Position numbers and translations under genes: made by a program
Virus record (IMG/VR): IMGVR_UViG_2690316176_000008
Strand: one strand, 5' to 3'
Origin: a virus
Taxonomy: Duplodnaviria > Heunggongvirae > Uroviricota > Caudoviricetes
DNA length: 24,033 bases
The notes under the pieces: generated by a model
Told to the model about the DNA's origin: nothing
Databases searched by the model: none
The model's input: the letters and a program-made list of their open reading frames with translations, nothing else
Part shown: piece after piece, positions 11,030 to 11,984 of the stretch
Numbering within the stretch: position 1 is the first letter of the stretch
Layout of the letters: every line of letters begins with the position of its first letter

Positions 11030-11503
11030 TTATTTCAGGCACTGAGTACGGATATATTCCTGTGCCCCTTCCAGTTGCTTGTGCATCGTCATCAGCCGCT
11101 CTCTGAGGGTGAAATAATCCCGTTCAGCGGTGTCTGCCAGTCGGGGGCCGGTTGCATTATCCACGCCGGAGGTGGTGGGGGCTTCACGCACGGAGCCTGG
11201 ACAGGTGGCGTTGATCCGCAGGCGCTTACGACCAGCGGCAACGTCAGCGCGAAGAGTTTCATTTTCAGCTCTCGCATCGGCTAATTCCCTCGAGTATTTT
11301 GCATCGAGCGCAGCAACATCGCGCTGGCGCACCTGCATATCAGTAATGGTTGCGTTCGCCAGCTTCAGTTCACTGGCTTTGTTATCGCGCTGCGCTTTGT
11401 AGGTAATCGCGTTATCACGGTAATGGTCTGTTGCCATCCACAGCGCACCACAGGCCACCAGCAGAATAACGATAAACGCGGAAAGCATTCGGTTTATGTT
11501 CAC
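11030..11503 (-). CDS. Rz: i-spanin Rz
   Basis: 157 aa with an N-terminal TM segment, then [54 protein letters not shown], collinear with lambda Rz. GTG start at 11503; an ATG five codons in is an alternative. Confidence 0.9.
11092..11262 (-). CDS. Rz1: o-spanin Rz1 (lipoprotein embedded in the +1 frame of Rz)
   Basis: [17 protein letters not shown] lipobox followed by the proline-rich [30 protein letters not shown], as in lambda Rz1. Fully nested within Rz. Confidence 0.85.
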
Positions 11504-11631
11504 CCCAGCAACCCCGACGAAGACAACATCATCCAGGCCATGGAAAGAAAAAGAGCAACCAGCATTAGTGAAAATGAAATGCCGACAATTACACAGAGGA
11601 TCTTCGCCAGCGTTATGAGTTTGTCTGACAT
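11500..11631 (-). CDS. candidate 43 aa single-pass membrane protein between endolysin and spanins
   Basis: ATG at 11631 preceded by [51 protein letters not shown] has one clear TM helix. Its stop overlaps the Rz GTG start. Confidence 0.4.
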
Positions 11632-11645
11632 GCTTAATCCTCCCT

Positions 11646-11828
11646 TCACGATTTCAACGCAATGACCAGTTTTGCCAGCCCATACAGCATCGGGGACACA
11701 GCAACACCGACCGCCACCCACTTAATGGCAAAAGCCAGTGCTCTGCTGATGTCATCAGTTACAGGCGCTTTCAGTTCAAGGCCATTTTTCATAGTCAACC
11801 TCAACAGAATTCGTTTATACTTCGCCAT
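11646..11828 (-). CDS. candidate 60 aa protein with C-terminal hydrophobic helix, between endolysin and spanins
   Basis: ATG at 11828 preceded by [66 protein letters not shown]. The track calls a longer GTG-initiated version (11646..11861) that would begin inside the upstream hairpin. Confidence 0.4.
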
Positions 11829-11861
11829 GTTCTCCCTTGCCTTACTCAAGGTCAGAAACAC

Positions 11862-11896
11862 AAAACCCCGCTTGGTGCCAACAAACGGGGTTTTTA
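11862..11896. terminator. bidirectional hairpin directly after the endolysin gene
   Basis: Stem aaaaccccg / cggggtttt with a 15-nt loop and T-rich tracts on both sides. The long loop suggests a weak terminator or attenuator. Confidence 0.4.
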
Positions 11897-11984
11897 CTTT
11901 TATTCACTTAGGTTTTGCCAGTTCACAGGACTTCGTGTTATCCGCCCGCGTTGGCCAACCTCATTTTTCAGCAAAATATTCTGC

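Follow-up and report, generated by a model that had tools for sequence, protein, structure and literature searches.

Two small genes for predicted membrane proteins between the endolysin and spanin genes of a lambdoid prophage, and their possible place in lysis

What does a lambdoid lysis cassette carry when its endolysin and its spanins are separated by almost half a kilobase of DNA? The question is raised by a 24,033-nucleotide stretch of Caudoviricetes DNA (IMG/VR record IMGVR_UViG_2690316176_000008, the whole of which is called the window below), whose minus strand encodes a pinholin S, an endolysin R of the signal-anchor-release (SAR) type, an inner-membrane spanin (i-spanin) Rz and an outer-membrane spanin (o-spanin) Rz1. 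An initial annotation of the window had put the distance between R and Rz at about 480 bp rather than a few nucleotides, and this is borne out: the gap measures 481 nt to the GTG start codon of Rz, and 496 nt to the ATG chosen by the Prokaryotic Genome Annotation Pipeline (PGAP). It holds two short open reading frames (ORFs) of 60 and 43 codons, here called ORF60 and ORF43. Judged by the way they vary among their relatives, both are genuine genes under purifying selection, a conclusion that follows from frame-specific selection, their fixed position, their membership of PHROG families and published ribosome profiling of an ORF43 homologue. A role linked to lysis is favoured by their place in a late operon and by translational coupling to Rz, and the best reading, at somewhat less than even odds, is that the two products are dispensable accessory inner-membrane components of the pinholin/SAR-endolysin/spanin cassette.

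Coding status, products and distribution of ORF60 and ORF43

ORF60 (11646-11828, minus strand; WP_001151823.1; phrog_1115, E 2.6e-42) runs from an ATG at 11828 to a stop codon at 11646-11648 and encodes 60 amino acids with a net charge of +7. Its Shine-Dalgarno-like element, GGGAGA (11831-11836, minus strand), is the one named in the initial annotation and lies at a short spacing of 2-3 nt from the ATG, while its TGA falls within the Shine-Dalgarno region of ORF43 (11500-11631, minus strand; 43 amino acids; WP_001280932.1; phrog_4906, E 2e-23). The latter begins with an ATG at 11631, ends with a TGA at 11500-11502 and is preceded by the Shine-Dalgarno sequence AGGGAGGA (11638-11645, minus strand) with a 6-nt spacer, in line with the strong ribosome-binding site claimed for it at the outset. 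When related alleles are pooled, without phylogenetic correction, the ratio of nonsynonymous to synonymous polymorphism (pN/pS) is 0.18 in frame for ORF60 against 1.05 and 1.34 in the other frames, and 0.58 against 0.79 and 1.13 for ORF43; the corresponding values for the control genes are 0.10 (3.35, 1.58) for R, 0.13 (1.90, 2.93) for S and 0.42 (0.96, 1.17) for Rz. Within ORF43, residues 1-27 give 0.44 in frame (0.87 and 0.85 in the other frames) and residues 28-43 give 0.72 (0.76 and 1.52). The ratio of nonsynonymous to synonymous substitution rates (dN/dS) is 0.19 at dS 0.61 between ORF60 and its Salmonella homologue. For ORF43 it is 0.41 at dS 0.44 against the homologue of phage 933W and 0.69 at dS 0.17 against that of Lys8385Vzw, the closest pair, and the 933W and Lys8385Vzw homologues compared with each other give 0.27 at dS 0.67. 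A few loci carry a frameshifted ORF43 or a truncated ORF60, as expected of decaying prophages.

The description of the two ORFs as unannotated has to be qualified, since RefSeq, through PGAP, lists both accessions as hypothetical proteins; it is accurate for ORF43 in 933W and in most GenBank records of Shiga toxin (Stx) phages. Neither ORF has a match in Pfam, NCBIfam or PADLOC, PHROGs 1115 and 4906 are both function-unknown families, and a search of the literature on function returned nothing for either accession, for the R-Rz gap, for the PhiR phages or for ECs_5707, the name of an ORF43 homologue in the Sakai re-annotation. Translation has been reported for an ORF43 homologue, XECs191, which was described as a novel gene in ribosome profiling (Ribo-seq) of E. 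coli O157:H7 Sakai, with 30 reads per kilobase per million (RPKM) in the transcriptome, an RPKM of 12.6 in the translatome and a coverage of 0.55 (PMC5597208). The profiling check proposed for these ORFs thus already has a published signal, albeit from a protein 67% identical to ORF43 in uninduced cells. For XECs191 a single transmembrane helix and a place in the inner membrane were predicted, and the entries 0 and -7.2 in a column of S3 Table whose header is not visible are taken to be a Shine-Dalgarno prediction (PMC5597208). It was found by a peptide-string search and lies in another Sakai prophage; a coordinate search for the Sp5 copy was unsuccessful.

The ORF43 product is predicted to be a single-pass inner-membrane peptide, as first proposed: its best 19-residue hydrophobicity sum is -3.8, compared with -2.35 for the transmembrane domain (TMD) of Rz. 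Because its N-terminus has a net charge of +1 and its C-terminus, SSSGLLG, is uncharged, an N-in/C-out topology is predicted. Across 14 aligned alleles S2-I6, V14-G17, S19, F20, L24, V25, W33 and L36 are invariant, and a small-xxx-small pattern, G17...S21, stands among the conserved positions. A cleavable signal peptide or a lipoprotein was considered for ORF43 and rejected, given a hydrophobic region of at least 19 residues, positions -1 and -3 that are not conserved among alleles and the lack of a lipobox.

ORF60 is of a different build. AlphaFold2 places a helix at residues 2-14 (low confidence), a loop, and a long helix at residues 23-59, with a predicted local distance difference test score of 86-90 in the tail; the C-terminal hydrophobic helix of the initial annotation is therefore found again, in weakly hydrophobic form. 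On the same hydrophobicity scale the tail scores +4.0 and the SAR domain of R +4.2, which makes the two indistinguishable and sets the tail far from a classical transmembrane segment. The ORF60 product is accordingly modelled as a tail-anchored basic protein with a weakly hydrophobic C-terminal helix. The tail shares with SAR domains a weakly hydrophobic helix rich in glycine, alanine and serine, but a SAR helix is N-terminal, follows basic residues and leads into an exported periplasmic domain, whereas that of ORF60 is C-terminal, with just two residues after it (...IALKS).

A second start of ORF60 is possible, and we mention it as a lead. An internal Met13 (11790-11792, minus strand) is preceded by GAGG (11799-11802) at a 6-nt spacer and would give a 48-residue form, the one that many gene callers report. 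A G(A/G)GG at positions -10 to -7 of Met13 persists in lineages whose amino acids differ there (LLRLT vs SVEAN), and the conserved core of the family starts at Met13; the N-terminal extension is also conserved at the protein level family-wide. The long start, an ATG in the window, is a GTG in phage GER2 and in Salmonella, where an 8-codon leader is coupled to it. This mini-ORF, MGREVLSL or MCREVYSL, lies at 1763-1798 of the GER2 locus (L214) and at 2977-3003 of a Salmonella locus (L220); its TGA overlaps the GTG of the ORF60-family gene, and its good Shine-Dalgarno sequence is the counterpart of the GGGAGA element. Such leader-ORF coupling is reminiscent of mok/hok.

To survey the surroundings of the two genes, about 220 related loci were gathered out of viral contigs, records of phages and assemblies, with some contigs included twice, and these reduce to 88 distinct R-Rz intervals. 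In the 203 loci that hold both R and Rz, all ORF60- or ORF43-family genes met at the junction lie between the two, on the strand of the lysis genes. Conservation and synteny, which the initial annotation had named as the check to make, are thus seen for both frames across E. coli phages and prophages, and ORF60 homologues occur in Salmonella as well; the lack of conservation that would have counted against the ORFs is not observed. The contents of the junction form a mosaic, put together from ORF43, ORF60 and a third family of small proteins, 'O31' (...WKFLLVWxIPFLWVV...AIK). The majority architecture is S-(185)-R-O60-O43-Rz, where 185 stands for an ORF of that many residues, and Stx phages have S-R-ant-O31-O43-Rz; S-R-O43-Rz, R-O43-O28-Rz, R-O60-O28-Rz and R-O50-Rz also occur. 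C-termini in the ORF60 family are of two kinds, of which the ...AIRWW kind comprises the 50-residue GER2 gene and a 28-codon remnant. One IMG/VR contig (L061) has a 311-residue DNA methyltransferase-like ORF inserted between ORF43 and Rz.

The two families differ in where they are met. Homologues of ORF43 were found by tblastn in 276 phage records, mostly of Stx-converting phages and including phi24B and Min27. The family was never seen away from Rz, either in the 203 loci or in five opened phage and prophage records (about 270 of the 276 were left uninspected for position). It stands upstream of Rz in 933W, in the Sakai Stx2 prophage Sp5 and in Lys8385Vzw; the 933W copy, at 27438-27566 between ant and Rz, has no annotation. 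ORF60 is present in just 14 of 50,697 phage records, and the whole interval occurs in 990 of 5426 complete E. coli genomes. In Salmonella an ORF60-type gene lies between Rz and an unrelated R21-like SAR endolysin that is accompanied by a PF16080-type holin. Divergent members of the family follow tail-fibre, DUF4376 and SASA genes at Salmonella prophage ends (2805-3168 of locus L218 and 3001-3201 of L216), where they precede DUF1353 or the prophage end; one of them is a tandem pair, and each comes after a bidirectional hairpin that differs in sequence. Searched with an ORF60 profile, 1.84 billion representative proteins yielded 22 representatives at 50% identity, all similar small proteins, and no link to a known domain; an alignment scan of species-representative genomes confirmed nothing. 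L220 also has, at 2708-2812, a possibly spurious ORF of 34 codons, hydrophobic in character (MYMAAMICFVAAFMLACDGRSGWGWFLLVGLIVM), which runs in another frame across the 3' end of its R21-like endolysin gene.

The hairpin and the coupling of ORF43 to Rz

Ahead of both small genes lies a hairpin of the intrinsic-terminator type (11862-11894, both strands), with a 13-bp stem, A5 on its 5' side and UUUUGUGUUU on its 3' side, 33 nt upstream of the ORF60 ATG. It had been described as bidirectional and as following R immediately. The first part stands, as it folds on both strands: at -18.9 kcal/mol (z -3.25) followed by UUUUGUGUUU on the sense strand of the late operon, and at -15.7 kcal/mol followed by U5ACUUUUAUU on the antisense strand. 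The second part does not, the hairpin beginning 90 nt past the R stop codon. In 45 sequence variants the stem is kept and the loop varies, a pattern from which we infer that the structure of the hairpin is under selection. In the Salmonella orthologue bases inside the stem are changed, yet it is the better folder of the two, at -23.2 kcal/mol (z -5.5). Rfam assigned the region to no family at threshold, the best hit being a rimP leader at 25.6 bits against a gathering score of 47.

Promoters and terminators were called by consensus scans, which in 10400-13600 found no sigma-70-like site along the coding strand. That a promoter might stand between the hairpin and ORF60 was considered and rejected, there being just 33 nt of room. 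With no coding-strand promoter and so short a distance from hairpin to ATG, transcription of both ORFs has to pass through the hairpin. In the late operon of lambdoid phages terminators are read through by the Q-modified polymerase, and by analogy with lambda ORF60 and ORF43 appear to be Q-dependent late genes.

At the other end of the interval, the stop codon of ORF43 had been predicted to overlap the start of Rz, and so it does: the TGA at 11500-11502 shares its first two bases with a GTG at 11501-11503 (GTGA). This GTG is, on comparative grounds, the true start of Rz. In 11 related loci the PGAP ATG (11488) is replaced by ATT, and these alleles, devoid of the downstream ATG, keep both the GTG (11503) and the reading frame; the PGAP start is thus probably wrong for the lineage. 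Starting at the GTG also gives back the Asn-Arg motif that the other type of Rz has at its N-terminus (MNR...). Since the GTG has no correctly spaced Shine-Dalgarno sequence, translation of Rz probably depends on ribosomes that finish ORF43, whose own translation would then drive i-spanin synthesis. The arrangement is a recurrent one: among the related arrays the last small ORF, whichever it is, stops 0-11 nt away from the start of Rz. In 933W it is the ORF43 homologue whose start is overlapped by the stop codon of ant, with Rz 10 nt beyond, and in the K-12 prophage Qin, where the R-Rz junction lacks these ORFs, there is a 4-nt overlap of rrrQ with rzpQ.

Possible roles and their rivals

If ORF60 and ORF43 are accessory lysis genes, their expression could proceed as follows. 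Past the hairpin, the only transcription to reach them should be late, Q-antiterminated and arriving from S and R. ORF60 would then yield a very basic (+7), tail-anchored and membrane-active late protein, perhaps together with the shorter 48-residue form from Met13, and ORF43, efficiently initiated at AGGGAGGA, would yield a hydrophobic N-in/C-out peptide. Ribosomes that terminate at the ORF43 TGA would sit on the Rz GTG and go on to make the i-spanin, a coupling that would replace the direct R-to-Rz coupling of simpler cassettes. The peptides themselves would most likely work within the inner membrane, next to the pinholin, the SAR anchor or the Rz TMD, ORF43 probably as a transmembrane partner there, and so tune the timing or efficiency of lysis.

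Small membrane proteins inside lysis cassettes are a kind already known, to which the two ORFs, in their function-unassigned families, would be added. In phage P2 the membrane-protein gene lysA lies between the endolysin gene K and the spanin genes lysB/lysC, the same slot as that of ORF60 and ORF43; it is reported to shift lysis timing and to be non-essential, and LysA is larger and multi-spanning. Dual-start genes make holin/antiholin pairs such as lambda S107/S105 and S21 71/68, in which the extra charge acts on a flipping N-terminal TMD. The possible long and short forms of ORF60, which differ by a 12-residue extension with four basic residues (K3, K5, R6, R10), would resemble these, but here the hydrophobic helix is C-terminal, there is no charged tail and no holin family of Pfam matches. 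More generally, neither ORF matches a Pfam holin at E <= 1 (S matches PF04971 at 2.3e-32), and neither shows the holin order, in which a hydrophilic and highly charged C-terminal domain comes after the TMD, ending as they do in SSSGLLG and ...IALKS.

Among the closest analogies is phage P1, where lydD (a pinholin of 84 residues with two TMDs) and the small gene lydE both follow the SAR endolysin gene lyz (PMC9025707). As in the window, these are small genes directly after a SAR endolysin, in a late operon and with overlapping or tightly coupled starts, and they are accessory to lysis rather than essential (PMC9025707). LydD itself is unlike either product: it has a pair of transmembrane helices and ends in a highly basic C-terminus that contains five arginines, whereas ORF43 and ORF60 have a single hydrophobic helix apiece and lack a charged C-terminal domain. 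Their sequences are not similar, and the cassette in the window already has a separate S21-type pinholin. Phage Mu provides a small non-holin membrane protein, encoded near the spanins, that acts on a SAR endolysin: the releasin gp25 (DUF2730), 99 residues long, whose TMD is N-terminal (N-out/C-in) and whose cytoplasmic domain is anionic (PMC9239132). ORF60 is its mirror image, with a basic N-terminus and a C-terminal hydrophobic helix, and Mu lacks a holin where the window has one. A Mu-type releasin was considered for both ORFs and rejected, on the lack of a DUF2730 match, on opposite topology and charge and, for ORF43, on the lack of a cytoplasmic domain.

The case for accessory lysis genes rests on position, operon structure, coupling to Rz, an association with two unrelated SAR-endolysin/pinholin pairs and the precedents of P1 and Mu. 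Several observations weigh against it. The two proteins show no sequence similarity to characterised lysis proteins in Pfam, NCBIfam, PADLOC or the PHROGs. The genes are dispensable, as K-12 Qin manages without them, but its spanin RzpQ (DUF2514) is of a different family; some loci hold one of the two families, and a few have a frameshifted ORF43. The R-Rz junction is an insertion hotspot (ant, and the 311-residue DNA methyltransferase of L061), and the divergent ORF60 relatives behind tail-fibre/DUF4376 genes of Salmonella prophages are remote from any lysis gene. ORF43 is moderately constrained, its residues 28-43 having a pN/pS of 0.72, and the Ribo-seq signal, recorded in cultures that had not been induced, is low. 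The initial annotation had offered a modulator of lysis timing, a spanin-associated protein, an exclusion factor and a membrane toxin as candidates, and the evidence singles out none of them. A bolder form of the lysis reading, which we regard as rather unlikely, would make the ORFs two new families of lysis regulators that are peculiar to cassettes of a pinholin, a SAR endolysin and spanins, with ORF43 as a partner of the pinholin or of the Rz TMD that gates spanin synthesis, and ORF60 as a two-form protein silenced in the lysogen by the terminator and by antisense RNA.

Other explanations dispense with lysis. The two genes could be passenger cargo in a recombination-permissive slot, with membrane functions unrelated to lysis such as a block to superinfecting DNA entry or another fitness effect, an idea that is unlikely on balance yet far from negligible. 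It accords with the ant gene that Stx phages carry in the same slot and the methyltransferase of L061, with the mix-and-match arrays of small ORFs (O31, O43, O60, O28, O50), with the ORF60 relatives after tail-fibre genes at a Salmonella prophage end, one of them a tandem pair, with the terminator-type hairpin as the mark of a module boundary, and with the frequency of ORF60 in E. coli chromosomes (990 of 5426 with the whole interval) set against its rarity in phage records (14 of 50,697). Cargo of this kind would be expressed from the prophage, however, and the consensus scan found no promoter for it; the ribosome signal in uninduced Sakai is low, the translational coupling into Rz is tight, ORF43 was never found away from Rz in the 203 loci and the five opened records, and neither protein has a meaningful periplasmic domain. 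A moron in the usual sense would call for a promoter of its own and a terminator behind it, whereas here the scan found no coding-strand sigma-70-like site, the hairpin lies upstream rather than downstream, and Rz overlaps the ORF43 stop codon. That both ORFs are chance reading frames in non-coding spacer is hardly credible: short ORFs are indeed common, 58 of at least 25 residues overlapping the 4 kb examined in six frames, but frame-specific selection, conservation (across genera for ORF60), the Shine-Dalgarno sequences, the PHROG families, the PGAP annotation and the Ribo-seq of the ORF43 homologue all contradict it.

For each gene there is also an explanation of its own. ORF60 might encode a membrane toxin that a cis-antisense RNA keeps under control, as in the type I systems hok/mok/sok and symE/symR, which combine such RNAs with leader-ORF coupling. 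A plus-strand RNA of about 72 nt, from ~11828 to ~11900, would be complementary to the ribosome-binding site, and a candidate promoter for it, TAGTCA-18-TATACT (11792-11821, plus strand; 9 of 12 matches), lies within ORF60 codons 3-13 and faces the hairpin, whose better U-tract is on the plus strand; we treat the site as a lead. A -10-like TATACT with a bidirectional hairpin 35-50 nt further on recurs in the GER2, Salmonella R-Rz and Salmonella tail-fibre loci, its complement AGTATA being kept in these lineages and in E. coli; by our own reading the GER2 counterpart is TGGACA-18-TATACT, and the tail-fibre hairpin differs in sequence. Between E. coli and Salmonella codons 3-13 are free of synonymous differences, of which ~3.6 are expected at the overall pS of 0.42, GER2 and Salmonella have the 8-codon leader coupled to the gene start, and ORF60 is small (48-60 residues), basic and hydrophobic with one helix; ORF43, with one TMD, would likewise pass as a small hydrophobic membrane peptide. 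And yet the promoter match is no better than chance (3 sites against an expected 3.9), it lies in coding sequence so that its conservation is confounded with constraint on the protein, the antisense RNA is a prediction, Rfam gave nothing beyond the sub-threshold rimP leader, the gene sits in a phage late operon, and the scan of the minus strand upstream of ORF60 found no promoter for the toxin itself; the idea is improbable. Equally improbable, or slightly more so, is that ORF43 is a mere translated leader that brings ribosomes to the Rz GTG, its peptide being incidental. The GTGA overlap with an Rz start that lacks a correctly spaced Shine-Dalgarno, the very strong Shine-Dalgarno of ORF43, the ending of the last small ORF of each array 0-11 nt from the Rz start and the weaker constraint on the C-terminal third would all suit such a leader. 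What would not is the constant length of 43 codons, the persistence of the invariant residues across alleles down to 65-70% identity, a dN/dS of 0.27-0.41 in the two more divergent pairs (dS 0.44-0.67; the closest pair has 0.69) and the hydrophobic single-pass character that every ORF43 variant retains.

The finding bears on Stx phages, in which toxin release depends on phage-mediated lysis. Directly upstream of Rz and coupled to it stands a conserved, translated membrane gene of 43-48 codons, as a rule without annotation, that occurs in 933W, the Sakai prophages, phi24B and some 270 further phage records; it is an overlooked component of a medically relevant lysis cassette. Were the bolder regulator reading true, ORF43 would influence when Shiga toxin-producing E. 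coli cells burst and release the toxin. Peptides that tune pinholin triggering, SAR-endolysin release or spanin supply would constitute new families of accessory lysis regulators and offer an experimental handle on lysis timing in lambdoid prophages; should the genes be cargo, the R-Rz junction would exemplify a slot for small membrane genes. Whichever applies, the annotation of Stx phages should gain ORF43, and the Rz start of this lineage should shift to the GTG.

The surrounding cassette and the remainder of the prophage

The cassette that frames the two genes is otherwise of familiar composition. Pinholin S (13116-13331, minus strand; 71 residues) is of class II and the S21 family, with the dual-start motif MYQMEK and a Pfam match to PF04971 (E 2.3e-32); PGAP labels its 216 nt 'class II holin family protein'. 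The SAR endolysin R (11985-12518, minus strand; 177 residues) is a phage lysozyme (PF00959, E 1e-23) whose N-terminus has K4 and K6 and then the Gly/Ala/Ser-rich YGLSAAVLALIAAGASA with the hydrophobicity sum of +4.2 given above; a triad E35-x8-D44-x5-T50 can be read directly in the translation. Between S and R lies a 185-residue ORF (12555-13112, minus strand) of the function-unknown family phrog_1085 (E 8e-113), without a match in Pfam, NCBIfam or PADLOC and full-length in 66 of 213 related loci (~31%). The i-spanin Rz (11030-11503, minus strand, GTG start at 11501-11503) matches PF03245 at E 6e-50, and embedded in it is the ORF of the o-spanin Rz1 (11092-11277, minus strand), whose translation has the lipobox VSAC and a proline-rich stretch. 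Together they form a two-component spanin operon of the lambda type, and the Rz1 counterpart is annotated in 933W. Downstream of Rz, in the place that bor occupies in 933W, a small hydrophobic ORF (10539-10697, minus strand) encodes 52 residues from a TTG or, according to PGAP, 46 (WP_000347013.1); a search for a family match to it found none.

The prophage as a whole is degraded. Compared with a near-identical prophage in NZ_CP148579 (locus L004), a deletion at ~9751 (region 6340-9752) has taken both subunits of the terminase, small and large, together with the gene for head-tail joining and the greater part of the portal, and a 1085-residue ORF (3498-6755, minus strand) starts with a DNA-packaging FI domain and continues into J domains of the tail tip, a fusion that points to a second deletion in which the tail genes between FI and J were removed. 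The lysis cassette, both small ORFs included, is intact. A gene for a type III effector glycosyltransferase of the SseK/NleB family (1-981; E 5e-171) adjoins those for Lom (2807-3430) and a collagen-repeat tail fibre (1429-2748), all on the minus strand, and its presence beside Lom and the fibre suggests a host of the attaching-and-effacing type of E. coli. The minus-strand late region has, as the first gene in order, a SASA-family esterase gene (13482-15335). Directly upstream of it are three tRNA genes (15825-16074, minus strand), for Arg-tct, Arg-tcg and a CAT-anticodon Ile/Met; this is the arrangement of Stx phages, here with no stx operon in between (15336-15824). The regulatory part of the window holds a ParE-family toxin gene (21778-22065), an AraC-type regulator (16101-16814) and an ORF6N-domain gene (18084-18644), again on the minus strand, and the homologous locus additionally has hokD, rem and IS200C.

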